Source: Antedon mediterranea (Eukaryota > Animalia > Echinodermata). Taken from it: DNA of 64,000 nt. The translations under genes were made by a program, and so were the position numbers. The stretch is from assembly GCF_964355755.1 (NCBI RefSeq), contig NC_092679.1:11577432-11641431 (forward strand), in the 5' to 3' direction. Shown here in pieces: positions 11,401 to 37,404 of this stretch (position 1 is the first letter of the stretch; every line of letters begins with the position of its first letter). The notes under the pieces were generated by a model. The model was not told the origin of the DNA and made no database searches. It worked only from the letters and a program-made list of their open reading frames with translations.

Positions 11401-14400
11401 CTCAGATTTAAAAGATGAGGGCTGAGTAAACAGGACCAGCGGTCCTACTCTAACTTATACTGGACGGCCAAAGAGGTACCTTAGTATAATCCCACCAAGT
11501 GACTCCCAGGAGCAATCCGCCATTTTCTCACAAATACAGTATCAAATTTCACTATAATAATAAAAATCGTAATTGAGTTACACTCAGATTTAAAAGATGA
11601 GGGCTGAGTATACAGGACCAGCGGTCCTACTCTAACTTATACCGGACGACTAAGGAGGTACCCAAGTATAATCCCACCAAGTGACTCCCAGGAGCAATCC
11701 GCCATTTTCTCACAAATACAGTATCAAATTTCACTATAATATTAAAAATCGTAATTGAGTTACACTCAGATTTAAAAGATGAGGGCTGAGTAAACAGGAC
11801 CAGCGGTTCTACTCTAACTTATACTTGACGATTAAGGAGGTCCCCTAGTATAATCCCACCAAGTGACTCCCAGGAGCAATCCGCCGTTTTCTCACAAATA
11901 CAGTACCAAATTTCACTATAATATTTAAAATCGTAATTGAGTTACACTCATATTTAAAAAAATGAGGGCTGAGTAAACGGGACCAGCGGTCCTACTCTAA
12001 CTTATACTGGACGACTAAGGAGGTACCCTAGTATAATCCCACCAAGTGATTCATAGGAGCAATCCGCCATTTTCTCACAAATACAGTATCAAATTTCACT
12101 ATATAAAAAATCGTAATTGAGTTACACTCAGATTTAAAAGATGAGGGCTGAGTAAACGGGACCAGCGGTCCTACTCTAACTTATACTGGACGATTAAGGA
12201 GGTCCCCTAGTATAATCCCACCAAGTGACTCATAGGAGCAATCCGCCGTTTTCTCACAAATACAGTACCAAATTTCCCTATAATATTAAAAATCGTAATT
12301 GAGTTACACTCAGATTTAAAAGATGAGGGCTGAGTAAACAAGACCAGCGGTCTTACTCTAACTTATACTGGACGACTAAGGAGGTACCCTAGTATAATCC
12401 CACCGAGTGACTTCCAGGAGCAATCCGCCGTTTTCTCACAAATACAGTACCAAATTTCACTATAATATTTAAAATCGTAATTGAGTTACACTCAGATTTA
12501 AAAAGATGAGGGCTGAGTAAACAGGACCAGCGGTCCTACTCTAACTTATACTGGACGACTAAGGAGGTACCCTAGTATAATCTCACCAAGTGACTCCCAG
12601 GAGCAATCCGCCATTTTCTCACAAATACAGTATCAAATTTCATTATATAAAAAATCGTAATTGAGTTACACTCAGATTTAAAAGATGAGGGCTGAGTAAA
12701 CGGGACCAGCGGTCCTACTCTAACTTATACTGGACGATTAAGGAGGTCCCCTAGTATAATCCCACCAAGTGACTCCCAGGAGCAATCCGCCATTTTCTCA
12801 CAAATACAGTATCAAATTTCACTATAATATTAAAGATCGTAATTGATTTACACTCAGAATTAAAAGATGAGGGCTGGGTAAACAGGACCAGTGGTCCTAC
12901 TCTAACTTATACTGGACAACTAAGGAGGTACCCTAGTATAATCCCACCGAGTGACTTTCAGGAGCAATCCGCCGTTTTCTCACAAATACAGTACCAAATT
13001 TCACTATAATAATAAAATCGTAATTGAGTTACACTCAGATTTAAAAGATGAGGGCTGAGTAAACAAGACCAGCGGTCCTACTCTAACTTATACTGGACGA
13101 CTAAGGAGGTACCCTAGTATAATCCCACCGAGTGACTTCCAGGAGCAATCCGCCGTTTTCTCACAAATACAGTACCAAATTTCACTATAATATTTAAAAT
13201 CGTAATTGAGTTACACTCATATTTAAAAAGATGAGGGCTGAGTAAACGGGACCAGCGGTCCTACTCTAACTTATACTGGACGACTAAGGAGGTACCCTAG
13301 TATAATCCCACCAAGTGATTCCCATGAGCAATCCGCCATTTTCTCACAAATACAGTATCAAATTTCACTATATAAAAAATAGTAATTGAGTTACACTCAG
13401 ATTTAAAAGATGAGGGCTGAGTAAACGGGACCAGCGGTTCTATACTCTAACTTATACTGGACGATTAAGGAGGTCCCCTAGTATAATCCCACCAAGTGAC
13501 TCATAGGAGCAATCCGCCGTTTTCTCACAAATACAGTACCAAATTTCCCTATAATATTAAAAATCGTAATTGAGTTACACTCAGATTTACAAGATGAGGG
13601 CTGAGTAAACAAGACCAGCGGTCCTACTCTAACTTATACTGGACGACTAAGGAGGTACCCTAGTATAATCCCACCGAGTGACTTCCAGGAGCAATCCGCC
13701 GTTTTCTCACAAATACAGTACCAAATTTCACTATAATATTTAAAATCGTAATTGAGTTACACTCAGATTTAAAAAGATGAGGGCTGAGTAAACAGGACCA
13801 GCGGTCCTACTCTAACTTATACTGGACGACTAAGGAGGTACCCTAGTATAATCTCACCAAGTGACTCCCTGGAGCAATCAGCCATTTTCTCACAAATACA
13901 GTATCAAATTTCAGTATATAAAAAATCGTAATTGAGTTACACTCAGATTTAAAAGATGAGGGCTGAGTAAACGGGACCTGCGGTCTTACTCTAACTTATA
14001 CTGGACGATTAAGGAGGTCCCCTAGTATAATCCCACCAAGTGACTCCCAGGAGCAATCTGCCATTTTCTCACAAATACAGTATCAAATTTCACTATAATA
14101 TTAAAGATCGTAATTGAGTTACACTCAGATTTATAAGATGAGGGCTGAGTAAACAGGACCAGTGGTCCTACTCTAACTTATACTGAACAACTAAGGAGGT
14201 ACCCTAGTATAATCCCACCGAGTGACTTCCAGGAGCAATCCGCCGTTTTCTCACAAATACAGTACCAAATTTCACTATAATATTAAAAATCGTAATTGAG
14301 TTACACTCAGATTTAAAAGATGAGGGCTGAGTAAACAGGACCAGCGGTCCTACTCTAACTTATACTGGACGACTAAGGAGGTACCCTAGTATAATCCCAC

Positions 14401-15890
14401 CAATTGACTCCCAGGAGCAATCCGCCATTTTCTCACAAATACAGTATCAAATTTCACTATATAAAAAATTGTAATTGAGTTACACTCAGATTTAAAAGAT
14501 GAGGGCTGAGTAAACGGGACCACCGGTCCTACTCTAACTTATACTGGACGATTAAGGAGGTCCCGTAGAATAATCCCACCAAGTGACTCCCAGGAGAAAT
14601 CCGCCATTTTCTCACAAATACAGTATCAAATTTCACTATAATATTAAAGATCGTAATTGAGTTACACTCAGATTTAAAAGATGAGGGCTGCGTAAACAGG
14701 GCCAGCGGTCCTACTCTAACTTATACTGGACGACTAAGGAGGTACCCAAGTATAATCCCACCAAATGACTCCCCAGGAGCAATCCTCCATTTTCTCACAA
14801 ATACAGTATCAAATTTCACTATAATATTAAAAATCGTAATTGAGTTACACTCAGATTTAAAAGATGAGGGCTGAGTAAACAGGACCAGTGGTCCTACTCT
14901 AACTTATACTGGACGACTAAGGAGGTACCCTAGTATAATCCCACCAAGTGACTCCCAGGAGCAATCCGACATTTTCTCACAAATACAGTATCAAATTTCA
15001 CTATAATATTAAAAATCGTAATTGAGTTACACTCAGATTTAAAAGATGAGGGCTGAGTAAACAAGACCAGCGGTCCTACTCTAACTTATACTGGACGACT
15101 AAGGAGGTACCCTAGTATAATCCCACCAAGTGACTCCCAGGAGCAATCCGCCATTTTCTCACAAATACAGTTTCAAATTTCACTATATAAAAAATCGTAA
15201 TTGAGTTACACTCAGATTTAAAAGATGAGGGCTGAGTAAACGGGACCAGTGGTCCCACCTAACTTATACTGGACGACTAAAGAGGTACCCTAGTATAATC
15301 CCACCAAGTGACTCCCAGGAGCAATCCGCCATTTTCTCACAAATACAGTATCAAATTTCACTATAATATTAAAAATCGTAATTGAGTTACACTCAGATTT
15401 AAAAGATGAGGGCTGAGTAAACAGGACCAGCGGTCCTACTCTAACTTATACTGGACGGCCAAAGAGGTACCTTAGTATAATCCCACCAAGTGACTCCCAG
15501 GAGCAATCCGCCATTTTCTCACAAATACAGTATCAAATTTCACTATAATAATAAAAATCGTAATTGAGTTACACTCAGATTTAAAAGATGAGGGCTGAGT
15601 ATACAGGACCAGCGGTCCTACTCTAACTTATACCGGACGACTAAGGAGGTACCCAAGTATAATCCCACCAAGTGACTCCCAGGAGCAATCCGCCATTTTC
15701 TCACAAATACAGTATCAAATTTCACTATAATATTAAAAATCGTAATTGAGTTACACTCAGATTTAAAAGATGAGGGCTGAGTAAACAGGACCAGCGGTTC
15801 TACTCTAACTTATACTTGACGATTAAGGAGGTCCCCTAGTATAATCCCACCAAGTGACTCCCAGGTGCAATCCGTCATTTTCTCACAAAT
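5433..15890 (-). repeat. Same satellite in inverted orientation, right arm (~58 monomers)
   Basis: The reverse complement of the monomer (GAGTAAACAGGACC...CCGCCATTTTCTCACAAATAC) repeats from the junction to ~15890. The last monomer is degenerate (GGTGCAATCCGTCATTTT). Confidence 0.98.
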
Positions 15891-16167
15891 ATTGAATTTC
15901 TAATACTATAAAAACCTTAAGCAATACTGAAAATGTGAAAAATACACAAACGGCGTTTCATACTTATTGTCGGCTGGAAAAAATAAAAGTGGGCTGGCTT
16001 ATTGTCGGCTGGCTTATTGTCGGCTAGCTTGACACAAGCATTGTTTGGTTGTGTTTTTTGTTGATGTTTTTGTTTGTAAAAAAACCCGCCACCTACAGTT
16101 TTCCCAAGCACGCACACACTTATTGCTGCTCTGGTTTTTCAAACGCGGGAGAGACGCAAGGGGTTAA
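15891..16167 (-). mobile_element. Putative piggyBac-like transposon terminus abutting the satellite
   Basis: The + strand reads AAGGGG|TTAA at 16158-16167, i.e. TTAA-CCCCTT on the - strand. Three subterminal CTTATTGTCGGCT repeats lie at ~15963-16025. The partner end is not in the window. Confidence 0.4.
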
Positions 16168-18057: not shown

Positions 18058-18096
18058 ACGCATGCGTAATACATTGGTTAAAACTCATGACGTCAT
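18058..18096 (+). promoter_or_regulatory. Probable WDR26 proximal promoter: NRF1-like palindrome, inverted CCAAT box, CRE/ATF palindrome
   Basis: ACGCATGCGT 18058-18067, ATTGG 18073-18077 and ATGACGTCAT 18087-18096, about 200-300 bp upstream of the first coding exon. Confidence 0.6.
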
Positions 18097-18151
18097 TGAA
18101 AATAAAGCACAACAGAGAGAGACAGAGCAGCTTCGCGAGCAGCTGACGGTG

Positions 18152-18255
18152 ATGGGGTGTATTATGGAATTGTTTCATAAGGATTCCGTCAAAATATTAT
18201 GAACATTTTGTTAAAATATTGCCAATTGGCCGATCTAGCTGAAGTAGTCAGATAA
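18152..18255 (+). other. Two overlapping short uORFs in the presumed WDR26 5' leader
   Basis: ATG 18152 to TGA 18202 (16 aa) and ATG 18199 to TAA 18255 (18 aa), overlapping as ATGA. They matter only if the TSS is upstream of 18152. Confidence 0.35.
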
Positions 18256-18275
18256 GTACTTTATTTGAAGCAATT

Positions 18276-18577
18276 CTGGCCTCTTCGTCCGATTCAGAGA
18301 ACGGTGGTTTGTCTCCGCCACCGCCGAAAAAACAACGCCTGTCTGCTGCTACTACTGCAGCAGTCATGCAAACCAATGGTTCGGGCCCGAGCTTTGAAAA
18401 TGGAGACACTGCTGCTCCGTTGTTGGTTAACCTTAATGGAGCTGCAAGCTCGGCTAGCAGTAATGGATCTTTCGTACCAGAAGATGTTTCTCGTAATCCT
18501 GTAACGATTACTCTTAGTCAGGGCGACAAAGATATTATTCGCCTAATAGGGCAACATCTGAAAGATCTAGGTCTTCA
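18276..18577 (+). CDS. WDR26: WDR26 exon 1 (first ATG at 18366, MQTNG; proposed CTG start at 18276)
   Basis: Frame is open from the stop TGA at 18240-18242. It encodes ...[13 protein letters not shown]...MQTNG...[14 protein letters not shown]. Donor CA|GTAAGT at 18578. Confidence 0.9.
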
Positions 18578-21500
18578 GTAAGTATATAATTTAGGCTAGC
18601 CTTAGGTCCTAGCTAGCTAGCCTGGGCCTAGGACTAGTTATTTGAGGGCCGGACTGAGCCCTACCTTTATGCCTAGCCTAAGCCTAGGTCCAAAAGTAGG
18701 CGCTACTGCAGTTTCGCACGACAGTGTTATATCTTCGATTTCTCACCTAAACTTTCATTTTTTACACTCACAACATACTATTATGTAACATGTTTACATG
18801 ATTACTAAGTAATTTTGTAAAAATAACAATACTTTTCAAAACATTTTAAACAATACTGAACTCGCTGTCAACACACTGCGAAATGTTCGCCATCTTATAT
18901 TTATCAGTTAATTGCCAGAATTTATGCTTCATTTTACCCCAAAAATTGTAGAAACTATAGAGGGCAGTCAGTGTTCTCCCCAGGATTCACATCAAGCGTC
19001 ACGCTTGGCCCCCCAGGGGGGTGGGGGGCATTCCGACACTAAGTACTTGAGTCACAGCCCCACCATGGTTGGGGCTGTGGCGAAGCGATTTTTGGTAATT
19101 TACACCCTAGATGGCCGGAAATGGTACTCTCGCACATAACATTTATGTTGAATGACACCTCTGGTTTGGCCGGAAATAACACTTATAGCGCGCTAGCAAA
19201 CAACAAAACGATCGTAGCCAACTTTTTCCGCCGGTAAACATACGCGAAGAAACATTTTTTGCGTTCATTACGAACGTCAGGGGGAAGCCCCAATGAAAAA
19301 AATAGGCCTAATCTATTAGCCTACTCATCAGTAGGAAAACTCTAGTTGGCCGGAAACGAAACTTTATAGCGCACTAGCAAACAGTAAAACCATCGTAGCA
19401 TACTTTTTCCGCCAGTAAACATACGCGATAAAAAAATGTTTTTGCGTTCAATACGAACGTCAAGGGGAATTCCCCGATGAAATAAAACTAGGCCTACTCA
19501 TGAGTAGAACAACTCTGTAGTTGGCCGGAAAGACACTTCATAGCGCGCTAGCAAACCGCACGATCGTAGCCTGCTTTTTCCGCCGGTAAACATACGCGAT
19601 AAGAAACATTTTTTGCGTTCATTACGAACGTCAAAGGGAATTCCCCGATGAAATAAAAAATGCCTACTCATCAGTAGGACAACTCTGTAGTTGGCCGGAA
19701 AGGACACTTCTTAGCGCGCTAGCAAACAGCCCGATTGAGCCTACTTTTCCGCAGGTAAACATACTGTACGCGATATATGAAAAAAAAATATGCCTCATAG
19801 TAGGCAACTGTAGTTAGCCGGAAACGACACCTCATAGCGCGTTAGCAAACATTAAAACGATCGTAGCCTACTTTTTTTTTTCGCCGGCGGGTAAACATAT
19901 GCGATAAAAAAACATTTTTTGCGTTCAAATACAAACATCGGGGGCAAGTCCCGATGAAATAAAACTAGGCCTACTCATTAGTAAGACACCTCTAGTTGCC
20001 CGGAAATAAGACTTCATAGCGCACTAGGAAATAGGAAAACATTCGAAAGAGAGACATGGCAGTAACAAAACACGTGCTTACATCTCTCGGCGGCGGCCGG
20101 TGAAAGCACCATGTGACATACAGTATCGCAGTACTGATATCACAATACCATGTGACATCCCTTGTCACTCGACTTTCTCACGAAGTAGGGCCTAAAACAT
20201 TCTAGCACCGATGTACAAATGTACCTTAAGTTAAGTGAAATAAGACTTTAGCGCACTAGCAAATAGGAAAACGATCGTAGCCTTCTTGAATGTATTATAC
20301 GATCAAAGCAGCTAGCATTGAATTGCGCCTAGAAATCATTTGATGACGTGCGTATGTTACCAACGAAAGAGTAAATCCCACCGATAGAGTCGATTAATTC
20401 AGTGTGATATTGAAAATAATAATATCATCGATATTTATTTTTAATACACATAACATTTTTACAAGAAAAACAATACAATCAATCATTTACTTTATTTACA
20501 ATATACAAGTTACTACACTTTAGACAACAGCCAAATACTAGAGATCGAAAGAGAGACATGGCAGTAACAAAACATGTGTTTACATCTCTCGGCGGCGGCC
20601 GGTGAAAGCGAGTCTCAGTTTAGTTGTTTAACACTTTGTTACGCAGTCTTTTGTTTTTCGTCTAGTGGTCATGTCACGTGTCTCGTATGCATTAGGCTCT
20701 TTATGCATGCCGCGCCTCAGCTCTAGAAAAAGTACCGTACCTGCCTGTTAATCTATTTTTAGATTGTTGTGGTTGATATTTTTAAGCGTCACGGATAAGG
20801 TTTTAAGCGTCACGGCCGACCGTAAAGCGTCACGGTAGAGAACCCAAGCGTCACGGTACCGTGACGCTTCAAAGGCCTGGGGAGAACACTGGCAGTGTTA
20901 TAAAATCCGATTACACATATAGGCCTATTTAGTTTTGAAAAGCAAGAAATGTTTTCAGCTGGTGAAATAAAGGTTAAATTAATATTTCATTATTAGATAG
21001 TATTATTATTCATATTAATGGTTCCTATCAATGTTTTATGTACGGACTCATATCGTCGCCGTTTTGATATGTACAGCTGGTTCTTTATAAAAACTACTCT
21101 TTGCAGTTTAAAAATAAAAACAGAAAATAAAACATACATTGATTTCTGGCAATTTTCTGATTCTAAAATGGCCACAGTTCGATCGAAGTATTCGCAAAAA
21201 AAGGAGCTGTTTTGAAAGGCATTTTTTATTATGATAAAGGTAATTAACGGTGGCTAAATCATGGGAACATGTTACATAATGGCCCAAAATTGTATGATGT
21301 GGGTGTGAGAAAAAAATTAAGCGAGAAATACTGAAAGCGAGTTTAGTTTTGGAAGGTTACCAGTGTTTTCTGTCAAAAGATTCTGTGCGAGGCACTGGGT
21401 TATATGTCAAGAATGGTATTCCAGTATCAGAAGTAAAGTTTAATGAATTTAGAGAGTCCGTTTGGGTTATTATTAATTTACCTCTTGACCAGAAATTACT

Positions 21501-24500: not shown

Positions 24501-27500
24501 AAGAAAAACATTTTGCATGAGATGTACAGTACACGACCGATTTGAAAAGCGAGCCATTCAAACCACGACCGATTTCAAGCCAGCTATGGCTAGGAAGATA
24601 GGTCTATGCTAAACCTGCTAATAATAGGCTGGCAAAACCTCTGTCAACTTACTAACTTACTAACTGTACCCAAGCAAGGAATCCATCAAAAGTAAGGAAT
24701 ATAATTTACTGTAGCTCACTAAATAGCAAATAATTGGCAATATTATTAAATTTAAATATAATGATGAATTTTGGGCTTATTCAACCCAGATTTGGTGTGA
24801 TGATTCCATCCTCTTTTTGACCCAAACTTCGTACAGTTTTTAACTAAATGATTGTTAAATAATGTTAATATACATTGGTGATATTTATCATTTTTTAAAA
24901 AGCTGTTTAAAACAATCATGCATTATTTCAATTTCTGATACATTACCAACTATAGAATATCTTTGTTAAATTAAATATTTGAGAGAATTTCAATTTAACC
25001 ACACTAAGCTTTGGCATGTGCAAAATACTTATTGAATAATTTCAAGTGCATGGCGATCGCTGTACTTTACTTCCCAAAAAAACAACCGTGTAGGCAATGA
25101 TGAGTAAAAACAATGTGAAGTCAAGCTGGCCTAACTTCAATATTGGTTACAATCCAGGTTGTCTGTCATAGGTAATTTTTATGCTGCGAAGAAATAACCG
25201 GTTATTAAACCATGTGAATGAATTAGTTAAACCCAATTTCTTGGCAGCTGAAACTGGACAAATTTTCAGTAAACGGTTAAATGGCAGCATGAAAATAATT
25301 GTTACAAACCCCTAATAAATAATAATAATATAATAGATTTGGCCATTTATTTGCAATCAATTATTCATTGTTTTGCTGTTTATATTATAGCCAATCTGTT
25401 GAACAATTGATGAAGGAATCTGGATGTACCTTAGAACACTCTGCTGCAGCTCAATTCCGTACTCATGTAATGGAAGGAAAATGGCAGAACGTAAGTACTG
25501 TACTACTGTAATTACAAAACACCAAATCATGGCCTAAAAGTGGTCCAGAATTTGGATCCTGGTCTGAATTTTCTCAAAATTTGGTAAGATTCCTCTTTTA
25601 GTTTTAGTTATCCTTCTATACTAACAGAACAAATATTACAAACAAATACATTTCGGGCACAAAAATAACCTCCTTAGCGAACAATAATACATATACCTAG
25701 TTAAAAGTAGTAATTTTACATCAGGGAAGTCATTTTAAAATTTAAAAGGGCCTGCTTATTATTTGTTAACAATTTACGCATAGACGTTTTGTTTAAAAAT
25801 AAAAATTCTAATTCCAGACAATGAAGCTATCATTTTAGTTACATCTGTACCAGGACAATGTTACAACAATACAGTACCTACTGTATGATATAATTAAGAC
25901 ATTTTAAAGAGCATTATTGGAATCCTGTTTCTTGTCAAATGCAGGATCCAAAGAAAAAGATAAAATGAACTACAAAGCAACAAGTGACTTAAAACATATT
26001 CTAAAGTATTTAAGTGAAATTTAAAACCTTTTAATTTGTGTTAAACGATAAATATGGATTTAGCATGTCTTGTCTAATCTTGCTTAGTTTCTATAATGAG
26101 TTGTGTCTTTATTTAAAAATTAAAAAAATGTTTACTTCAAACAAAATGCCCTGAAAATTCCTTTTATTTTTTTTAAAGACACCTTCCCTACGTTTTTTAG
26201 ATCTATTTTAAGATCACAAACTATATTAAATCTAAAAATAATACTATATGGTCCTATTGCGATAACTTTTTTCGTCTTTAAATGGTTAAAAATGTGAAAA
26301 ATAAGTCGATTCTAATATTTATAGGGGCCCGCTATAAATCCCAAAATGCATTGCGTGCAGATTGATATTTCTGTTTTTCTTCTGTAATTCACCCACTTTT
26401 TGATCGATCGTGAGGCCAAAACAAATGGAAGACTCCAAACTTTTCAGCGAAAATACCAGGTTTTCCCCAATTTGTATCAACGGAGTCTGGCAAAAATAGA
26501 AAGACAATTAATGCAGCAACTATACAACGTCAGACTAGGTATATAGCTAGCGTACGATGTTCGTACATTACCGATGTTTACCAGCTAGGCCTACAAAACT
26601 AAGCCTAACTAGGCTAGGCCTAAAGACCGTCCACGAGAGGTGAGTCGCCGCGAGCTACCTAGGTAGTGCATTGTTTCTCACTTTTTATCATAATTTACCA
26701 TAAAACGTACATTTAAGACAAGGAATGACCTGGTTTAATGTTTTTAAAGTAATATATATGTATTATTTTTACAAAACGTCACAAATTGTAGGGAAGGTGT
26801 CTTTAATTTGAGCAATTTTGTTTTTTATATTCAGGCTGAAGAAGACTTGCAAGAAATTCGACTTCTTATAACTAGTCCACAAGAACTGTTAAAGATGCAA
26901 TTTCTACTATTAGAACAAAAGTACCTAGAATATTTAGAAGAGGGTCAACTTAATGAAGCCTTGCATTGTCTTCGTCATGAATTAACACCTCTCAAGTATA
27001 ACTCAGAACGGGTTCATTCGCTAAGCAGGTTTGTTACATTTGGAAGATTCACTTGGGCCTGCATTTCTTTAAAAAATAGAAACATATACATCATGAAATA
27101 TGAATGTTGTCTATCCTGTTAAAGTTAAATCCTCTATATTACTCAAAATACATTTTTTAAGTCTGAAAAGCTTTCCGACAAATGTGATTTCTTCCAAGAA
27201 TACTGCAATATTTCATTTTCTTTTTAAAGTTGCAGCTATAACATTTGTACACCTCTCTTAAGCTACAACCTAGACATTTTAGATTGGGCTTTTAGGAGAT
27301 TTGACCTTATGTCATGTGTAAACAAATATACAGTATTTTTAAGGCACAAAAACTGTATAATATCCACAAATTAATTAGAGAAATATATGGTGTATAATAT
27401 TAAGGTACATAAGGTGAATATCTTTTATTTGTAAAGTTCACTATACATGTTTACCATTGCCATTTCTTAAAGCACGATAGGTCAATGTGAGTAGTTATAT

Positions 27501-30500
27501 ACCAGAAATCGCCAGTATCGATGGTAGCATGTATTTATTTTATTTCACCTTATTTATAGAGGGTGACCCTAAACACTGTATGCTGCCAATCAAGGTCTTG
27601 ATGAGTAATGAGAAGTGTCTGTGTGCGACAGTCACAGTGTGAATAGTCGTACACCAGGGTAACCCACTACTCGTCTCGAAAGATGTACTAGGTTCTTTAA
27701 AGTGCACATGAGCCAGATTTACACTCGACCTACGGTTTATAGTCCTCCACGAGCACTCGTTCTACCACCAGAACCATGGAGAGAGTGAGACTTGAACCCT
27801 TGCCGATTTTAAAATGGCATGGTATTACAGTTCCTCTCCTCTCTATACCGGTAATTCCCCACAATCATACTGTAGTGTTGGTTTGTTTTACATAGGGCTA
27901 AAAAAGTTCTTTTCTTATCCTAAGACAAACAAAGAGCTCAGGGTTTCTTATAATCTACTTATACTCCGTTCATTGATAATTTGCAATTTATTTTATATTC
28001 AGTTTTTTAATGTACACTAACAAAGATGAATTACATAAACAAGCCAATTGGGAAGGAAAAGGACTTGCATCTAGAACAAAGCTAATGGAGCAGCTACAAG
28101 GTAAACATACATTCATACCAAGAATTTACACTGTTATGAGGCCTAAAAAAAAAGTTTTTTTTTGTTTTTTTTGTTTTTTTTAATGCTAATTTCTCTGTTA
28201 ATTGTACGCGAATTTGAGAGTAACAAAACACACTGAATAAAACAACGAGCTCAAACATCTATTCATAATTTGTTTCACACTTTAATTCTGTTTTGGGCGC
28301 GTTAGGCTCCGTGTCTAAAAACAGTCTAAACTAGCCTAGGCTAGGCCTACTACACAGTAGGTCGTTGTTAGCAGGCCTAATTAAATATTTTAGAAGTTAG
28401 TGTACCGTATATTTCGGTGTATAAGTCGCACCTGTGTATAAGACGCACCCCCTAACTGAGAGTAAAATATCGGTATTTTGTATATCGTCGATGTATAAGA
28501 CGACCGCGCCCAGCCTCAACAAGAAGGGAAGTCCCCCATTCCGTCAGTTCTTTCTAACTTGTTATTCATGATTTTCGCACCCGCAACATCGAGTGCATGA
28601 CCGCACATGTGTGTGGGCTAGCCTCGCTCGATCCTTTTATCGAGAGGCGCACGTTTTCACGGACAATCGTATTCGATTAGTATCTATGTATCCTAGAAGT
28701 GTGTACGCTAGGTCTATGCTATAATCAACTGGAGAATATACTAGTCGAATACTGTACACCATGTGGTTGCCAAGAAGGGCTTGCTCGCGCTGGGGGTACG
28801 ACGGTCGTGCGTATAACTATAACACTATTCCAATCGTAAACGTTTACAAATGAAATTTTATCGGAGCGCCTAAAACAGCTCCATAATGAACAAATCTTTT
28901 CATCATATTTAGTACAAAATCACGCTAAAATGCCTTGAAAACTAGCAGGTTGTTGTTACGCTAGTACACTGTAGCTAGGCTATGCCTACTCTTTAGTAAT
29001 ACTAATAGGCCTTACCTTAAAAAGCCCAGGCCTAGCCAACGAGGTGGCGATATCTGTGTGTTGAGGCATTTATGTTCGTTGTATAAGACGCACCCTTAAT
29101 TTAGAGGTTAAATTTGCGTGTCAAAAGTGCGATTATACACCGAAATATACGCTACGTTATTATTTTTATTGTTTCATCCTCACACACTCGATTTTTACAC
29201 CTTGTCGGCCAAAAAAAATCATAAAAAAACTTTTTTTTTAAAAGCGCCCTCAACGTAAAAAAAAAAACTTTTTCTTATCTCCGCCCCAAATTTTTGGCGA
29301 AATTAGGGGCGGCGGATGACAGCAAACAAACTATTTTTTTTTTTAGGCCTGATAATGGTTGCTGCAAATCTAACCATATAAAATACCACTACAATTAGGC
29401 CAATTAAAAAAATATGTCAATGTCAAAGGACAATTACAAGTTTCTATTTTGGCAAGGCGAGCTCAGTGTCCTGTTGTTTAATTGTCTTGATGTAACACAG
29501 CCGTATTTGATGCCTATGAAATGTATTTCCAAATCTCAATTTTTAATTTTTTTTTTATAGTTTTTTTCCCGCCATCTGTGATGCTACCACCAAAACGAAT
29601 GCATAATCTATTGAAACAAGCACTTGAGTATCAGCAGCAGAGGTGTCCTTACCATAATACTAAAATACCTGATAGCATAGAATCAGTTTCATTACTTACA
29701 GATCACACCTGTAGTAGGTAAGGTTAACATATATTATATTAGTATTTACTTTATTATTCTCATTTTAAGTGAGTTCATTCAATTTCCATCTCAAAGTACG
29801 TGGCAATTCTTTTCACAAGACAAACATCGTTTTTATTTATTTTGTAATTGTATGTATTTTTGAAAAATAAATATATTATCATTATTTATTTTGTTTTATA
29901 TAGATTGTCATTTCCATGCAAGACTAAACAAATTTTAACAGAGCACTGTGATGAGGTGCTGTATAGTTGTTTTTCTCCAAATGGGTGCAAATTAGCCACA
30001 GGTTCTAAGGATGGTACACTGATTATTTGGGAAGTTGTTAAGGTAAATCAGGATAATCTAGCACTTTTTTTAAATGTTGACACATAATGTCTATTTGTGT
30101 TGTAGCCAGCATAAATAGTACTAATACCAGGACCAATAATCACCTAAATTGTGCTGCCAAATTTAAGAAATTATGGCATGTAACATGGCCAATTAAAATT
30201 ATTATTATCATGAACAAAAGAACACAAGGACTTGAATCACTCTGAGCTCAAATGTCAACTGACATATATATTATTAAATAAGTTCATTTGGATCTGATAA
30301 TGTAATGTGAAAAAAAGTTACTTTTATATGATCCAATATAGTGTCAAGTTTGTAAGATGATATCGGTACTACATTTCCAGAGAACTTGACGTTTCACCTA
30401 CTAACAGCAAGGCATAATCATCATCACATATGATTATGCCTTGCTGTTAGTAGGCGAAACGTCAAGTTCTCTGGAAATGTAAGTACCGATATCATCTTAC

Positions 30501-33500
30501 AAACTCGACACTATATTGGATCATATAAAAGTAACTTTTTTTCACATTACATATATATATATCATGCGTTTACATTTGAGGGTGTGTAGTGATGCAAAAA
30601 AGACACACTGTTTAAAAAGCGTGTTTGTTTGATTGACAGCAGTGCTTTAGCATATGCAAGCACGTTAGTTAATCTTTTGTCCATAGCATCATTCAGAAAC
30701 AAAACACATGCTACGATCGGTTTACTTACAATGTATAATATGTCTATAATTAGTTTGTCATGTATTAATATATTAAAATAAAAGTCCTTAAGTATTAAAA
30801 AAATGATATTTTTTCAGGAAACACACAAACTAAAGTTGGCTCACACTCTTGATGGTCATTCTAGTGGTGTGTTTTTTATGTCTTGGAGTCCAGATAGTAA
30901 ATTTATTATAGCATGTGGACCAGATGATTGTGCTGATTTATGGATATGGAATACTGAGGTATGGCTTCTTAATACTGTGCATTTAGAACATCTTCTTTTG
31001 GGGCACCCCTCTTAGGGGGCATGTGTTAACCAATGAATGATTAATGTTGATGTTCTTTTTCTTCATCCATCTACCTATGGCATTTTCACTTGTGCGAGAT
31101 TTTCTTCAACTAATAATGAAAATTTTAGTATTTAATATTTTATTTAGCCAAATTAAAAAGGATAAATTTAATAAATAACACAGTTTACATGCTATGCCTA
31201 TGTTAGGGTTAAAATATTGTTTAAATGTAAAAAATTATATTGTTACCGAGTGAAAAGCTAGCCCTTAATCAGCTGGCACCTCATCCTCAGTCTAAAATCG
31301 CTAAATTGTAAATAGCTTGTTGATATAAAGTTTGCGGTACACCACATATATTTAGTTCTGAGAAGTTATCGACGTTTCGATCAATATATTTTGATTGTCC
31401 TCGAGATATGAAAACATATTGATTTCACCATGCAAACCTTCAATAATATTTCTTGGGTAAATTTTTATTCAAGTTATACTGTACTTGAATTGTAATGTGT
31501 CTGTTTTAAAGTTGGGTGTAATTATTCCGCCATGACCTTGTTTTTCTGGAGCAAGAGGTACTGTAGATCCATGATGGAAAAATATATTCTTTTTTTCTTA
31601 AACTGGTTCTCTAATTGCTATTGGCTATTTGGCGAATGAATAGTGCGAGCGAGGTTATGTACACCTTTTGATTATCATGTAATGTGTTTTCTACCTTTTA
31701 GACTGGTATATTAAAAACTAAGATGACACATTCACCAGAAGATAGTCTAACATGTGCTGCTTGGAATGTAGATGGCAAGAGGTTTGTTACTGGTGGAATC
31801 AAGGGTCAATTTTATAGATGTGTAAGTTCAAGGGTCAATTTTATAGATGTGTAAGTTCAAGGGTCAATTTTATAGATGTGTAAGTTTTTGTTACAATTTT
31901 GCATTTAACATTACATTCTATTATGAAATGTTTGTTCATATGAACTTTGTAATCTGTGATATCAATATAGATTATATACAAAATTATACCACACGTGAGT
32001 GTATTTGAACAACATATGTGAACAGTATAGATCTACTGAAATGAAGTGATGTTTATGTGAACAGTATATTTTGTGAAAATGTTGAGAATTTTTCTGTTGA
32101 CTGATCTGCATTAAAAAATCAATGTTATACTGTGCGTCTTCAAAAGTAATTGGATAATCTAAAAAGCACATTCTCTTTTCATTCAGCATATTGATGGTGG
32201 AATTATTGATTCCTGGGAAGGGGTTAGAGTTCATAGTATATGTACTAAGTCCGATGGCAAGACTGTTCTCGCATCGGATACGCACAAAAGAATCAGAGCT
32301 TACATTTTTGAAGAAATTACTGACTATAATGTGTAAGTAAAATACAGAATAATTAGTGAATTTATCAACCAGGGTGTGCCTATATGCTGTGTGGAGCTAT
32401 GTACAGAATTCAAAGGACCAGGGTGTGCCTATTCTGTGTGGAGCTATGCCACAGAATTCAAAGGACCAGGTTGTGCCTATGCTGTGTGGAGCTATGCCAC
32501 AGAATTCAAAGGACCAGGGTGTGCCTATGCTGTGTGGAGCTATGCCACAGAATTCAAAGGACCAGGGTGTGCCTATGCTGTGTGAAGCTATGCCACAGAA
32601 TTCTATGGATGCGATTTTTTAAAGATATTATTGCAACATTAAAAACAAGGGGAAACACTGAAAAGTTCTTGGAATTTTCTTGAGAGCTATTTGATGGCGG
32701 TCAATGCACCAAACACTTGGATATATTTTGGCACATCCCTAAAGGAAAATAATGTTATGTTAAAGTATTAATATTTCAATGATCACTAGTTATAGATTTA
32801 AACGTTTTAAGGCTCTTTCACACCTATTCTGGTCCGGTGCTGGGAAATCCAATTGAACGTCAATGTTTCGTTTTCACGCGGCTATGCGCATATCGATTGG
32901 CACATAGTTGTGTGGAGCGTCGTGAAAACGAAACAATGATGTTCAATTCGTTGGACTGGAACCGTGCCGGAACAGGTGTGAAAGACCCTTTACTCTTGCT
33001 ATTATCGCACTGAATGTGAGATGAAATTATGATATAATGCGTTAAATAAATATATTGATATTTTAATGCAAGTAAAAAGGAAAATATTAAATATTCAAAA
33101 TTTGAATTTGAGATGAATTTGATTTAAGTAAATATTTATATCCATTTCCTACTTCAGCATTTTCTGACTTTCATTTCAGAATTCAAGAAGATCACCCAAT
33201 CATGTCTTTTGTTTTGAGTTCTAATGAACGATATGCGTTGTTAAATGTTGCCAACCAAGGAGTTCATATGTGGGATATTAAGGATAAGATATTGGTGCGC
33301 AAGTTTCAGGGAATCACACAGGGCTTCTATGCCATTCATGCTTGTTTTGGAGGTGTAGGCGAAAATTTCATTGCCAGTGGTAGTGAAGGTATGTTAAATT
33401 TCTAGGTGCATCGAAATAGTGCCAAAGCCATGTTATGTCAGTAAATTGAAGTTAGACCCTTTTCTAATTTCTTTATAACAGTATAGAGCTCATGGCATTT

Positions 33501-36500
33501 AGGTATACAGTGCTTGCAGAACCTTGCTTGCAATTAAATGTCAGGCAATTAGAATTTCTCTACATATAGATCAAGTTTCTCCAAGCTGGACACTTGAATG
33601 TCTTATATTATTATTATTATTATTATTTATTGCCAAAAACCAGATACAAACAAACAAAAACACAGAAACTAAGGGAGTAGGCAGGAACCTAAAAGTGAAC
33701 CTAATCACTATAACAAGAGTTCAGGTTCCGTACTCCCAAAGTAACAACAATGATATATAATAAACTATATAAAAATATTTAAATAACAAATAGACGAATC
33801 AACAGTGTCAATATAAAATAAACGGATAAAATACATTATAGTCGATTCAACAAAGTCAATATAAAACATGTGATTTAAGTTTGATAGCAAGGGAGACTTC
33901 CTTGTTATATGGACTGTGTGGTAACCCCTGGGTTTCCTAGGTTTGCTTTTGCAAGTTATCAATTCTACAAGACCAGCTGATTGACGTTCCTTTGAATGAC
34001 AGATAAGCATTGTATTTCAAATTTGTTGATTTTGCAATTTACAATTTACTGCTGTCAAAAATATTTTTTATATGTGCATTGTTTATAAGAAACTTTGAAA
34101 TATGTAATTGTAAATCATACTAAAATAATATATCTACAGTATAAAATTATCATGGTTACTGTAACTAATTAAAATTAAAATTTTAAAATTCTGCAACAGG
34201 TCGATCATCTCTTGTATAGATAGCTTTTTGCTTATATTTGTTATTTCCATTGAGATCCAGCCACTGAAACCCACAGCATTGTCATTTTGTATCTCCATTG
34301 AGATCCAGCCACTGATACCCACAGCATTGTCATTTTGTATCTCCATTGAGATCCAGCCACTGATACCCACAGCATTGTCATTTTGTATCTCCATTGAGAT
34401 CCAGCCACTGATACCCACAGCATTGTCATTTTGTATCTCCATTGAGATCCAGCCACTGATACCCACAGCATTGTCATTTTGTATTTCCATTGAGATCCAG
34501 CCACTGATACCCACAGCATTGTCATTTTGTATCTCCATTGAGATCCAGCCACTGATACCCACAGCATTGTCATTTTGTATCTCCATTGAGATCCAGCCAC
34601 TGATACCCACAGCATTGTCATTTTGTATCTCTATTGAGATCCAGCCACTGATACCCACAGCATTGTCATTTTGTATCTCCATTGAGATCCAGCCACTGAT
34701 ACCCACAGCATTGTCATTTTGTATCTCCATTGAGATCCAGCCACTGATACCCACAGCATTGTCATTTTGTATCTCTATTGAGATCCAGCCACTGATACCC
34801 ACAGCATTGTCATTTTGTATCTCCATTGAGATCCAGCCACTGATACCCACAGCATTGTCATTTTGTATCTCCATTGAGATCCAGCCACTGATACCCACAG
34901 CATTGTCATTTTGTATCTCCATTGAGATCCAGCCACTGATACCCACAGCATTGTCATTTTGTATCTCCATTGAGATCCAGCCACTGATACCCACAGCATT
35001 GTCATTTTGTATCTCCATTGAGATCCAGCCACTGATACCCACAGCATTGTCATTTTGTATCTCCATTGAGATCCAGCCACTGATACCCACAGCATTGTCA
35101 TTTTGTATCTCCATTGAGATCCAGCCACTGATACCCACAGCATTGTCATTTTGTATCTCCATTGAGATCCAGCCACTGATACCCACAGCATTGTCATTTT
35201 GTATCTCCATTGAGATCCAGCCACTGATACCCACAGCATTGTCATTTTGTATCTCCATTGAGATCCAGCCACTGATACCCACAGCATTGTCTTTTTGTAT
35301 CTCCATTGAGATCCAGCCACTGATACCCACAGCATTGTCATTTTGTATCTCCATTGAGATCCAGCCACTGATACCCACAGCATTGTCATTTTGTATCTCC
35401 ATTGAGATCCAGCCACTGATACCCACAGCATTGTCATTTTGTATCTCCATTGAGATCCAGCCACTGATACCCACAGCATTGTCATTTTGTATCTCCATTG
35501 AGATCCAGCCACTGATACCCACAGCATTGTCATTTTGTATCTCCATTGAGATCCAGCCACTGATACCCACAGCATTGTCATTTTGTATCTCCATTGAGAT
35601 CCAGCCACTGATACCCACAGCATTGTCATTTTGTATTTCCATTGAGATCCAGCCACTGATACCCACAGCATTGTCATTTTGTATTTCCATTGAGATCCAG
35701 CCACTGATACCCACAGCATTGTCATTTTGTATCTCCATTGAGATCCAGCCACTGATACCCACAGCATTGTCATTTTGTATCTCCATTGAGATCCAGCCAC
35801 TGATACCCACAGCATTGTCATTTTGTATCTCTATTGAGATCCAGCCACTGATACCCACAGCATTGTCATTTTGTATCTCCATTGAGATCCAGCCACTGAT
35901 ACCCACAGCATTGTCATTTTGTATCTCCATTGAGATCCAGCCACTGATACCCACAGCATTGTCATTTTGTATCTCCATTGAGATCCAGCCACTGATACCC
36001 ACAGCATTGTCATTTTGTATCTCCATTGAGATCCAGCCACTGATACCCACAGCATTGTCATTTTGTATTTCCATTGAGATCCAGCCACTGATACCCACAG
36101 CATTGTCATTTTGTATCTCCATTGAGATCCAGCCACTGATACCCACAGCATTGTCATTTTGTATCTCCATTGAGATCCAGCCACTGATACCCACAGCATT
36201 GTCATTTTGTATCTCTATTGAGATCCAGCCACTGATACCCACAGCATTGTCATTTTGTATCTCCATTGAGATCCAGCCACTGATACCCACAGCATTGTCA
36301 TTTTGTATCTCCATTGAGATCCAGCCACTGATACCCACAGCATTGTCATTTTGTATCTCTATTGAGATCCAGCCACTGATACCCACAGCATTGTCATTTT
36401 GTATCTCCATTGAGATCCAGCCACTGATACCCACAGCATTGTCATTTTGTATCTCCATTGAGATCCAGCCACTGATACCCACAGCATTGTCATTTTGTAT

Positions 36501-37404
36501 CTCCATTGAGATCCAGCCACTGATACCCACAGCATTGTCATTTTGTATCTCCATTGAGATCCAGCCACTGATACCCACAGCATTGTCATTCAGTAATTTT
36601 CCTTTTGGATTTATATATTTTGTATTATATATACATAGTGGAAATGATGTTTCCACCAATAAATGGGAAAAAATATAATAAAATTTATAATTATAACTGT
36701 ATGTTGTTAATATTATTATTATAATGCATTTAAGAACTCCATCCTGTATTCAGTAAAGTAAATTAAATACATTTTTACAAATTGCAGATAATAATGTTTA
36801 TATATGGCATATAAAACGTGAACGGCCATTAGTAGTATTGCAAGGTCATACAAGAACTGTTAACTGTGCATCCTGGAACCCAAAGGTGCCTAGCATGTTG
36901 GTAACAGTTTCAGATGACTTTACTGTTCGTGTATGGGGCCCAGAAAGCAATGAAGGTTGGTTGCTTTTTTTAAAAACTGCAAATGATTTGTAAATTTCTT
37001 TGGGACACATTGTTTTGCCATGTTTCCTTTACATTTAACGAACACAAATAGAGTCGTTTTAATCTTTTAAAATTTGTTTTCCTATAGAAGTGATTAACTT
37101 TATTAAAACTACAAAATAACTCATTCAAAGTGTGATTTAATTGATCTTCATTTTTCATGTTTTTGGGTGACAATACATCTTTAAATGAATGATTTCTACG
37201 AACTTTGATTTTGAGTAGTACTGTATTGATAATAATCACAGAGCTTTGATGGTTAAAATTCTAACTTCCTGTTTTTATTTTTCTCTTCAAATTGGAAAAC
37301 TGATTATTGTGTGATATGGTTCTATAATTGTCGATTACCACAGTATTGAGTTCAATTATGTCATTGTTTTTTTTCCAGATAATGTATGCAGTACAGCAGT
37401 GTGA
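18276..37404 (+). CDS. WDR26: WD repeat-containing protein 26 (CTLH/GID E3 ligase subunit, Gid7 homolog), 12 coding exons, complete
   Basis: Spliced exons give LisH ([21 protein letters not shown]), CTLH ([11 protein letters not shown]; [13 protein letters not shown]), [11 protein letters not shown] and a WD40 propeller ([21 protein letters not shown]). All introns are GT-AG with consistent phases. Confidence 0.96.
18969..20891. mobile_element. Non-autonomous DNA transposon with 16-bp TIRs and 5-bp TSD (hAT5-like?), with an internal ~175-bp tandem array
   Basis: CAGTGTTCTCCCCAGG / CCTGGGGAGAACACTG; TSD GCAGT at 18964-18968 and 20892-20896. AAGCGTCACGG subterminal repeats at 20785-20856. About 6 diverged internal units at ~19110-20030. 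Confidence 0.85.
21320..23322 (+). mobile_element. CR1-clade LINE, 5'-truncated and internally deleted (APE endonuclease plus RT C-terminus)
   Basis: GCVYRSP, VAGDFNY and GKSDH (APE motifs); [19 protein letters not shown] and [11 protein letters not shown] (RT and downstream). Stops and frameshifts present. Short TTCAAGGTAA tandem tail at ~23302-23322. Confidence 0.9.
23730..24181 (+). mobile_element. Penelope-like element 3' fragment (GIY-YIG endonuclease plus pseudo-LTR) with 16-bp TSD
   Basis: [17 protein letters not shown]...PVAEHFN...KEKHW. Partial hammerhead core CTGATGA at 24059-24065. Direct repeat TGTGTATGGTAATGAA at 23714-23729 and 24182-24197. Confidence 0.85.
25391..25490 (+). 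CDS. WDR26: WDR26 exon 2
   Basis: TAG| acceptor; [33 protein letters not shown]; |GTAAGT donor. Confidence 0.93.
26177..26802. mobile_element. Kolobok/T2-like MITE (TTAA TSD)
   Basis: TTAA|AGACACCTTCCCTAC ... GTAGGGAAGGTGTCT|TTAA, a perfect 15-bp TIR. Confidence 0.85.
26835..27028 (+). CDS. WDR26: WDR26 exon 3
   Basis: TTCAG| acceptor; AEEDLQEIR...[15 protein letters not shown]...[16 protein letters not shown]; AG|GTTTGT donor. Confidence 0.93.
27533..27800 (-). mobile_element. tRNA-derived SINE remnant
   Basis: B-box-like GGGTTCAAGTC on the - strand at ~27789-27799. The central ACCTACGGTTTATAGTCC / CTACTCGTCTCGAAAG segment resembles Nin-type SINE cores (from memory). A-rich (AAAT)n tail on the - strand at ~27533-27546. 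Confidence 0.5.
28003..28100 (+). CDS. WDR26: WDR26 exon 4
   Basis: TTCAG| acceptor; [32 protein letters not shown]; G|GTAAAC donor. Confidence 0.92.
28140..29349. mobile_element. MITE with GGCC termini and 3-bp TGA TSD (Zator or PIF/Harbinger-like)
   Basis: TGA|GGCCTAAAAAAAAA ... TTTTTTTTTAGGCC|TGA (TSD at 28137-28139 and 29350-29352). Confidence 0.7.
28405..29152. mobile_element. Tc1/mariner-pogo type MITE nested in the previous element
   Basis: TA|CCGTATATTTCGGTGTATAAGTCGCAC ... GTGCGATTATACACCGAAATATACGC|TA, with internal TATAAGACGCACCC repeats. Confidence 0.8.
29561..29717 (+). CDS. WDR26: WDR26 exon 5
   Basis: TATAG| acceptor; [33 protein letters not shown]...LLTDHTCS; AG|GTAAGG donor. 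Confidence 0.93.
29904..30042 (+). CDS. WDR26: WDR26 exon 6
   Basis: [46 protein letters not shown]; |GTAAAT donor. Confidence 0.93.
30300..30552. repeat. Near-perfect ~122-bp inverted repeat with 8-nt spacer in WDR26 intron 6
   Basis: 30300-30421 is the reverse complement of 30430-30552 with about 2 substitutions and 1 indel. Confidence 0.95.
30818..30958 (+). CDS. WDR26: WDR26 exon 7
   Basis: TTTCAG| acceptor; [18 protein letters not shown]...[16 protein letters not shown]; |GTATGG donor. Confidence 0.93.
31702..31821 (+). CDS. WDR26: WDR26 exon 8
   Basis: TTTTAG| acceptor; [40 protein letters not shown]; |GTAAGT (first of three tandem donors). Confidence 0.92.
31799..31885 (+). repeat. 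29-bp x3 tandem repeat spanning the exon 8 donor
   Basis: TCAAGGGTCAATTTTATAGATGTGTAAGT occurs three times exactly. Confidence 0.97.
32187..32332 (+). CDS. WDR26: WDR26 exon 9
   Basis: TTCAG| acceptor; [18 protein letters not shown]...[22 protein letters not shown]; GT|GTAAGT donor. Confidence 0.92.
32368..32602. repeat. 48-bp x ~5 tandem repeat in intron 9
   Basis: Unit CCAGGGTGTGCCTATGCTGTGTGGAGCTATGCCACAGAATTCAAAGGA. Confidence 0.95.
32810..32989. mobile_element. Small PIF/Harbinger-like MITE
   Basis: TTA|AGGCTCTTTCACACCT ... AGGTGTGAAAGACCCT|TTA. Confidence 0.7.
33180..33388 (+). CDS. WDR26: WDR26 exon 10
   Basis: TTTCAG| acceptor; [14 protein letters not shown]...[13 protein letters not shown]...FIASGSE; G|GTATGT donor. 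Confidence 0.93.
34243..36590. repeat. Highly homogeneous 48-bp minisatellite, ~49 copies, in WDR26 intron 10
   Basis: Unit ATCTCCATTGAGATCCAGCCACTGATACCCACAGCATTGTCATTTTGT, with only rare single-base variants. Confidence 0.99.
36788..36955 (+). CDS. WDR26: WDR26 exon 11
   Basis: TTGCAG| acceptor; [55 protein letters not shown]; G|GTTGGT donor. Confidence 0.92.
37379..37404 (+). CDS. WDR26: WDR26 terminal coding exon 12 (DNVCSTAV-stop)
   Basis: Strong polypyrimidine acceptor TTTTTTTTCCAG|, phase-compatible with exon 11; TGA at 37402-37404. Confidence 0.7.

Follow-up and report, generated by a model that had tools for sequence, protein, structure and literature searches.

A predicted CUG-initiated N-terminal extension of WDR26 in the crinoid Antedon mediterranea and its conservation across Bilateria

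Background

Few non-AUG starts are known to be shared by vertebrates and invertebrates. In eIF4G2 (NAT1/DAP5), the non-AUG start is the only known start of the gene. This gene is the cited precedent, its non-AUG initiation having been kept in vertebrates, a tunicate and Drosophila, although the codon is not described as identical across these groups (PMC9977666). WDR26 resembles eIF4G2 in having a deep non-AUG start but, unlike it, has retained two starts, with the CUG codon and its context unchanged.

The closest described system is WDR26 of vertebrates. An ACG/CUG-initiated extension was reported from human to fish, and a non-AUG upstream start on the same gene, with AUU as its codon, was reported in Drosophila (Ivanov et al. 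2011, PMC3105428). The vertebrate and fly extensions were judged independent in origin, the fly extension was described as not conserved in mosquitoes, and the passages of that paper dealing with WDR26 make no mention of a nuclear localization signal (NLS) (PMC3105428). One human extension peptide was detected by mass spectrometry, and the strong CUG and the ACG were noted; the extension peptide fell after EGFR inhibition while the canonical WDR26 protein stayed (Zhu et al. 2018, PMC5834625). For human WDR26, a table of start sites has rows for the AUG and for a GUG lying 32 codons upstream of it, and both the CUG and the ACG are absent from its WDR26 rows (PMC12718117); this GUG lies after the basic motif, and the peptide of Zhu et al. 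lies upstream of the GUG. WDR26 is also listed as unannotated for a non-AUG form by Fedorova et al. (bioRxiv; PMC9789052), and in a further paper it appears only in a reference (PMC13082882). The earlier note on this DNA had referred to a human long isoform; the vertebrate extension is indeed published, and the new part is its depth and anatomy.

Nuclear high-order CTLH complexes need WDR26 (PMC11659599), and WDR26 substrates carry degrons that overlap NLSs (PMC7616709; PMC12687426). The NLS of SV40 large T-antigen resembles the WDR26 extension in having a serine/acidic patch upstream of a Pro-Pro-basic cluster, and CK2 phosphorylation upstream of that NLS speeds import 50-fold (PMC3022542). 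The likeness is one of layout, with no homology, and the spacing in WDR26 is a few residues shorter. No report of an NLS in the WDR26 extension, or of an invertebrate CUG start, was found in the literature searched, which was mostly without subscription papers.

Results

The WDR26 locus of Antedon mediterranea

The window is the whole stretch of 64,000 nucleotides of Antedon mediterranea DNA that was analysed. Its gene was identified as WDR26, as the earlier note had proposed, by 11 tblastn blocks of protein P0001 (WD repeat-containing protein 26-like, Antedon mediterranea, 569 aa) on the + strand between 18366 and 36954. P0001 begins at the ATG at 18366 and was the sole match to exon 1 in a single-sequence search. 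It matches the LisH (LisH_TPL above the cut-off) and WD40 families, nearly all named top matches among the best 120 of 771 homologues are WDR26, and in the trees it groups with echinoderm and hemichordate WDR26. It thus has the LisH, CTLH region, C-terminal WD40 propeller and grouping of a WDR26/GID7 orthologue, the CTLH not being scored as a separate family. The features discussed below are as follows.

18099..18275, + strand: 5' leader of WDR26 exon 1, minimum extent; a same-species contig (X1) starts at 18099 and has no joint to 18577
18152..18202, + strand: uORF1, 16 codons, out of frame, strong context, with a second ATG at 18164; its stop (TGA, 18200-18202) overlaps the uORF2 ATG
18199..18255, + strand: uORF2, 18 codons, out of frame; stop at 18253-18255, ending 20 nt before the CTG
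18240..18242, + strand: in-frame TGA bracketing the extension upstream; no change listed in 4/4 relatives
18273..18284, + strand: context of the predicted CUG start, which is at 18276-18278, has A at -3 and is followed by GCC TCT; CTG and A at -3 found in 18/18 loci, the window and human mRNA
18276..18365, + strand: predicted 30-codon N-terminal extension; homologous peptides in 77 distinct variants
18282..18299, + strand: serine/acidic patch SSSDSE, of CK2-type S-x-x-D/E pattern; pattern in 73/77 peptides
18312..18341, + strand: Ser-Pro site followed by a classical monopartite NLS-like motif; K-K/R-x-K/R in 74/77 peptides, S/T-P in 51/77
18366..18577, + strand: annotated AUG and coding part of exon 1, MQTNG to the start of LisH; P0001 begins here
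18578, + strand: splice donor GTAAGT; contigs of three relatives (X2-X4) leave the genome at 18575-18579
25391..36954, + strand: remaining WDR26 coding exons (LisH/CTLH region, WD40 propeller), located by tblastn; last few residues not located

The sequence bears out that the frame is open and free of ATG from the TGA at 18240-18242 to the ATG at 18366 (gtcATGc, MQTNG), which has C at +4, and that the CTG at 18276-18278 stands in attCTGg, with A at -3 and G at +4, 30 codons before that ATG. The other in-frame near-cognate codons (ATA 18252, ATT 18273, TTG 18309 and CTG 18339) are all without G at +4.

Presence of the extension in transcript-like contigs and in close relatives

Contigs from five of twelve listed runs, which are only presumed to be RNA, were compared with the locus; X1 came from the same species and X2-X5 from four other organisms. 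The X1 contig spans 18099-18577 in one piece, and those of X2-X5 start at 18182-18214 and run onward across the CTG region. At the donor, the contigs of X2-X4 part from the genomic sequence and run on into exon-2-like sequence, and they are therefore taken to be spliced. The extension thus lies in contiguous transcript-like contigs upstream of the AUG in 5/5 of these presumed RNA runs, and no splice joint is listed in the leader or extension in any of the five, including at the AG at 18269-18270. Splicing at this AG was rejected on the contigs, which cross it intact, those of X2-X4 being spliced to exon 2. Among the findings that the earlier note had named as speaking against the extension were splicing of an upstream ATG-containing exon into the frame and a transcription start downstream of 18276; neither of these appeared as far as these contigs show, which give no transcription start sites and from which rare isoforms drop out.

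Between 18268 and 18345, a single change is listed in the four relatives, a synonymous G>A at 18287, changes near contig ends being incompletely listed. Deletions after the CTG total 6, 6, 6 and 9 nt in the four relatives and all keep the frame; the 1-nt insertion of X5, behind 18253, falls upstream of the CTG. Coding-type conservation therefore begins at the CTG, with the frame kept after it and broken before it and the upstream columns not kept. The ATA at 18252 was rejected as a start because of its weak context and because it is cut off by the X5 insertion.

Invariance of the CUG codon and its context

Eighty loci were scanned for N-terminal LA[ST]...PP-basic peptides without regard to codons, and each of the 18 peptides found started with CTG and had A at -3. 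These 18 loci are 15 distinct ones after the near-duplicates L009, L010 and L013 are dropped; three other rows of the scan were set aside, one being a LASLAS repeat further upstream in L016 and two lying within coding regions. The G at +4 in 18/18 loci is a consequence of the search filter, which required the Ala. Detailed tests covered 14 genes, namely the window and 13 loci, L040 and L044 having come to light later. CTG made up 6-44% of Leu codons in these 14, and the chance product for CTG in all of them is about 1e-11 if they were independent, an assumption that overstates the figure. As a control, 60 invariant Leu, Ala, Ser, Pro, Arg, Gly, Val and Thr columns were compared in 11 transcripts, which share the same relatedness, and only the start-Leu column used a single codon throughout; in the other 21 invariant Leu columns, at most 6/11 shared one codon.

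The residue before the start Leu, in the 73 peptides having one, was S (36), T (18), I (12), R (3), N (2), D (1) or A (1). Residues that need a pyrimidine at -3 accounted for 0/73 directly before Leu vs 173/614 further upstream, and columns upstream of -6 were not conserved. By eye, the human mRNA in the supplement of Ivanov et al. matches at this CTG GCC TC and also carries A at -3; with the human ACT CTG GCC TC at the same place as the crinoid ATT CTG GCC TC, the homology of the two extensions proposed in the earlier note is well supported.

Alignment of leaders across deuterostomes and protostomes, a check proposed at the outset, gave the expected pattern, since the peptide is kept across phyla while codons vary and the frame is bracketed by stops and free of AUG in 12/14 genes. 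The exceptions are L047, which is cut, and L002, in which an in-frame AUG in strong context lies 20 codons before the CTG. NCBI models place a Met upstream of the motif in Ephemera, Timema, Halyomorpha, Diaphorina and Orchesella dallaii, and these are models only. No additional RNA hairpin was found after the CUG relative to synonymous resampling (mean z -0.33, 10/14 negative), the Gly-Gly/Pro-Pro codons after the CUG pairing by themselves. The CUG initiation that had been proposed is well supported, as far as sequence can support it, by the invariant codon and context in 18/18 loci, and the CUG is very probably a real start.

Upstream of the CTG, an out-of-frame ACG with G at +4 was seen 20 nt before it in three loci (L003:89-103, L005:99-113 and L016:106-120), where it opens a uORF of 4 codons that closes with a TAG 5 nt short of the CTG. 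In vertebrates, an ACG in a similar CCACGG setting is in frame and precedes the CTG by 24 nt. Insect proteins read HHG at the place of the ACG. The insect and myriapod-like ACG and the vertebrate ACG may be one element that changed frame.

Orthologues and phylogenetic range

Homologues comprised the best 120 of 771 and a set of 329 fetched proteins, and the metagenome scan 80 of 118 confirmed loci; 36 of the 80 include the LisH start. Extension homologues were found in 90/329 proteins, as 77 distinct peptide variants. Among the 36 loci, 18 have the LAS...PP-basic peptide upstream of the usual Met, 14 start at an AUG that is followed at once by the PP-basic motif or by a short linker, three (L011, L014 and L030) keep the basic motif without LAS/CTG, and one (L059) is cut. 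Gar, newt, bird and pangolin models that extend upstream of MQANG read TTAALGEETLASASSSSDSDTGGASPPPRKK or a close variant. The human peptide given in the earlier note was nearly right, differing from the Ivanov supplement in one stretch, which reads RKKPRASAA and not RKKPRQSAA.

By the tree and the named members of each cluster, carriers of LAS include annelid-like (L001, L002), myriapod-like (L003, L005) and mite-like chelicerate (L006-L008, L015) loci. They further include springtail (L004) and insect (L016) loci, Ephemera, Coptotermes, Diaphorina, noctuid moths, an ostracod and the tunicate Styela, and the Priapulus-sister protein P0091 keeps the SPPP-basic part. The tree was a quick tree; a separate FastTree left out P0100, and the positions of its long-branch rows (L012, L030, P0140, P0141 and P0144) are unreliable. 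As judged from these peptides, the LAS-type extension is shown to range across Bilateria, and nothing older could be named. P0140, a non-bilaterian candidate, proved to be from the tunicate Styela. No pre-bilaterian carrier could be named among the remaining candidates, of which P0240, P0243, P0304, P0315 and others cluster without named members and P0343 had no match.

The long-branch WDR26 of L030 (65-203) has PPKKRKR directly before its first Met and several near-cognate codons, without ATG, upstream. Among the homologues no Drosophila sequence was identified. Mosquito WDR26 keeps S-P-basic just before Met, whereas moths and other insects keep the full LAS motif. In culicine mosquitoes (the cluster of P0190 and P0351), a long upstream frame ends in SSPQSKRRR just before the RefSeq Met, and P0190 starts with M where the Culex model has V, a GTG probably having been called as the start.

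Motifs of the extension

The conserved elements are the Ala-Ser after the start Leu, which is invariant, S/T-x-x-D/E in 73/77 peptides, S/T-P near the basic cluster in 51/77, and K-K/R-x-K/R in 74/77, the last count being partly circular because the basic motif was in the peptide filter. The crinoid KKQR fits K-K/R-x-K/R, the core consensus of a classical monopartite NLS, and the S-x-x-D/E patch is a putative CK2 site by the consensus for that kinase. The crinoid SPPPP is without the +3 basic residue of the full CDK consensus.

Ahead of LisH, each of the 57 vertebrate-type AUG forms has a run of six residues of which 4-5 are basic (KKKKRL), and 28/29 invertebrate AUG forms are without a cluster of four basic residues in six there, the scan covering this pre-LisH region. 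Vertebrate AUG forms thus hold a candidate NLS of their own besides the extension, which makes a simple switch less convincing in vertebrates; the human start-site table, with its GUG rather than the CUG, also speaks against it. Invertebrate AUG forms are mostly without such a cluster, so the extension would supply one, and a clean switch between forms with and without an NLS is likely in invertebrates only. The basic motif probably acts in nuclear import.

Two predicted starts and the copepod exchange of codons

The interval between the CUG and the AUG was 26-109 codons across the 14 genes, and in all 14 the main AUG is without G at +4. No frame of this interval holds an ATG in any of the 14; out-of-frame ATGs between the two starts numbered 0 vs 7.0 expected, and zero was reached in 0/2000 synonymous resamplings. 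Such an ATG-free interval is what scanning through to the AUG would require.

Copepod assignment rests on L019, which clusters with Calanus and Neocalanus; L037 is not in the tree. The first AUG is preceded by a pyrimidine at -3 and followed by T at +4 in 14/14 copepod-type loci, and a second AUG after the basic motif has a purine at -3 in 10/10 examined, four near-duplicates being left out. Copepods lost the serine patch and the Ala-Ser start and kept the Pro and basic residues. It appears that copepods changed the codon and kept both the leakiness and the order of start, basic motif and start; their losses mark the basic motif as the putative retained part of the extension.

Most of the loci L017-L029 have weak-context uATGs 36-56 nt upstream of the first AUG, and the copepod-type uORF is often 10-14 codons long, in frame, and ends 3 nt before the weak first AUG. 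In the mite-like L011 (225) and L014 (113), AAA ATT TCG heads a long conserved frame with an SPP-basic motif, and this ATT is a candidate AUU start.

Upstream ORFs of the crinoid leader

The covered part of the crinoid leader has three out-of-frame upstream ATGs (18152, 18164 and 18199), which were absent from the earlier note; between the CTG at 18276 and the ATG at 18366, the crinoid has no ATG. The ATGA overlap of uORF1 and uORF2 is also seen in the loose end of the X4 contig, and the TAA of uORF2 is kept in X5 despite the 1-nt insertion, although the uORF2 peptide is not conserved. An upstream ATG within 250 nt is absent in 7/13 loci, one of which is cut.

Since strong upstream AUGs precede the crinoid CUG, reinitiation as well as leaky scanning would be involved, and we speculate that the crinoid uORFs point to reinitiation. 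Ribosomes leaving uORF1 would have 73 nt to the CUG; for those leaving uORF2 this distance is only 20 nt, and they would tend to go on to the AUG. The strong upstream AUGs would lower the flow to both starts.

Discussion

Vertebrate and crinoid WDR26 share the gene, the position, the CTG GCC TC start and a peptide of S-rich/acidic-GG-SPPP-basic layout. Vertebrate WDR26 differs in its in-frame ACG eight codons upstream, its longer linker and the second basic cluster in its AUG form, and crinoid WDR26 differs in having CUG only, 30 codons and AUG uORFs. Our verdict from these comparisons is that the crinoid extension is orthologous to the known vertebrate one and probably of at least bilaterian age. 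The data point to one bilaterian origin of the WDR26 extension, against the published independent origins.

It appears fairly likely that WDR26 mRNA with the conserved CUG makes both a long NLS-bearing and a short MQxNG form by leaky initiation. Some scanning ribosomes, in the crinoid also reinitiating ones, would start at the inefficient CUG and the rest would reach the AUG. After removal of the initiator Met, the long form would start with Ala-Ser and would carry the serine/acidic patch and the basic nuclear-import signal, and the short MQxNG form would be without both. KKQR would bind importin alpha and bring WDR26 dimers and CTLH E3 assemblies into the nucleus, and phosphorylation of the acidic serines 12-14 residues upstream of KKQR may adjust this import, as it does at the NLS of SV40 T-antigen. 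Selection would then keep a leaky first start upstream of the basic motif, mostly CUG and, in copepods, an AUG in weak context.

A different use of a genuine CUG would be as the start of a regulatory tail, that is, a phospho-controlled docking site, an N-terminus that changes stability, or a mimic of the basic degrons bound by the propeller. The invariant Ala-Ser and the basic cluster that vertebrate AUG forms already have would fit such a tail, as would the binding of basic NLS-part motifs by WDR26, which YPEL5 blocks by mimicry (PMC7616709). However, the degron consensus K/G-R-x-W/Y/F or its inverse (PMC7616709) occurs in 0/77 peptides by motif test, an SV40-type NLS did not work as a WDR26 degron (PMC7616709), and copepods lost the serine patch and Ala-Ser and kept the Pro and basic residues; we consider a regulatory tail unlikely, though far from negligible. 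It is also conceivable, with a small probability, that the CUG or weak AUG gives nearly all invertebrate WDR26, the MQxNG Met being mostly internal and the poor start limiting dosage. The short form in invertebrates is predicted only, the AUG is without G at +4 in 14/14 genes, and the crinoid uORFs would fit dosage control. That ATGs are missing between the starts, where 7.0 would be expected, makes sense only if ribosomes scan on to the AUG, and it argues against a dosage start, as do the retention of the Met after linkers of 26-109 codons and a vendor blot described by Ivanov et al. (PMC3105428), on which the lower band is the main one and the upper band minor.

Very improbable, in our judgement, is that translation comes into this frame from an upstream exon with an AUG or from an upstream in-frame AUG, or that the frame is conserved as an untranslated DNA or RNA element. 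The almost complete invariance of 18268-18345 in close relatives, even at third positions, could be read in this way; L002 and some gene models do have an upstream Met, and the runs are only presumed RNA, with contigs from which rare isoforms drop out. Nevertheless, 5/5 runs have no joint and the spliced X2-X4 contigs cross the AG at 18269-18270 intact, and in-frame stops bracket the CTG without an AUG in 12/14 genes. The keeping of the peptide across phyla while codons vary and the detection of a human extension peptide by mass spectrometry (PMC5834625) speak against an untranslated element.

Production of a long and a short form by leaky initiation, the reading that we favour, can be extended, tentatively and as a possibility that falls somewhat short of probable, to a single leaky-start switch older than the protostome-deuterostome split that sets the nuclear share of CTLH. 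Start-codon stringency and uORFs would choose the subunit, phosphorylation of the serine patch would tune its import, and lineages would exchange the codon (CUG, the weak AUG of copepods, and AUU in some mites and flies) without giving up the design. If such a switch is true, CTLH work on AUG-started cDNAs has missed a nuclear-targeting subunit.

The WDR26 codon, context and peptide are kept across chordates, echinoderms and annelid-like, mite-like, springtail and insect lineages. This offers a testable approach to the targeting of nuclear WDR26-CTLH assemblies. It is predicted that many WDR26 database models and AUG-started constructs are without the conserved N-terminus, and the annotated 5' UTR of human WDR26, the Skraban-Deardorff syndrome gene, would be a coding region worth reading in variant data.

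Other sequence features of the window

A 182-bp satellite forms two arrays (30 and 57.6 copies) at 1-15891 of the window, with an inverted junction at about 5433, and the arrays end about 2.2 kb upstream of the WDR26 leader. Tandem arrays within the WDR26 gene lie at 19319-19764, 32368-32603 and 34237-36590; that in intron 1 has 171-bp units, and two unrelated arrays have 48-bp units, one with 49 copies at 99% identity. Just upstream of the start of the X1 contig are the palindromes ACGCATGCGT (18058) and TGACGTCA (18088, once in the window) and an ATTGG (18073), and the elements at 18058-18095 presumably correspond to NRF1-like, CRE and inverted CCAAT sites.
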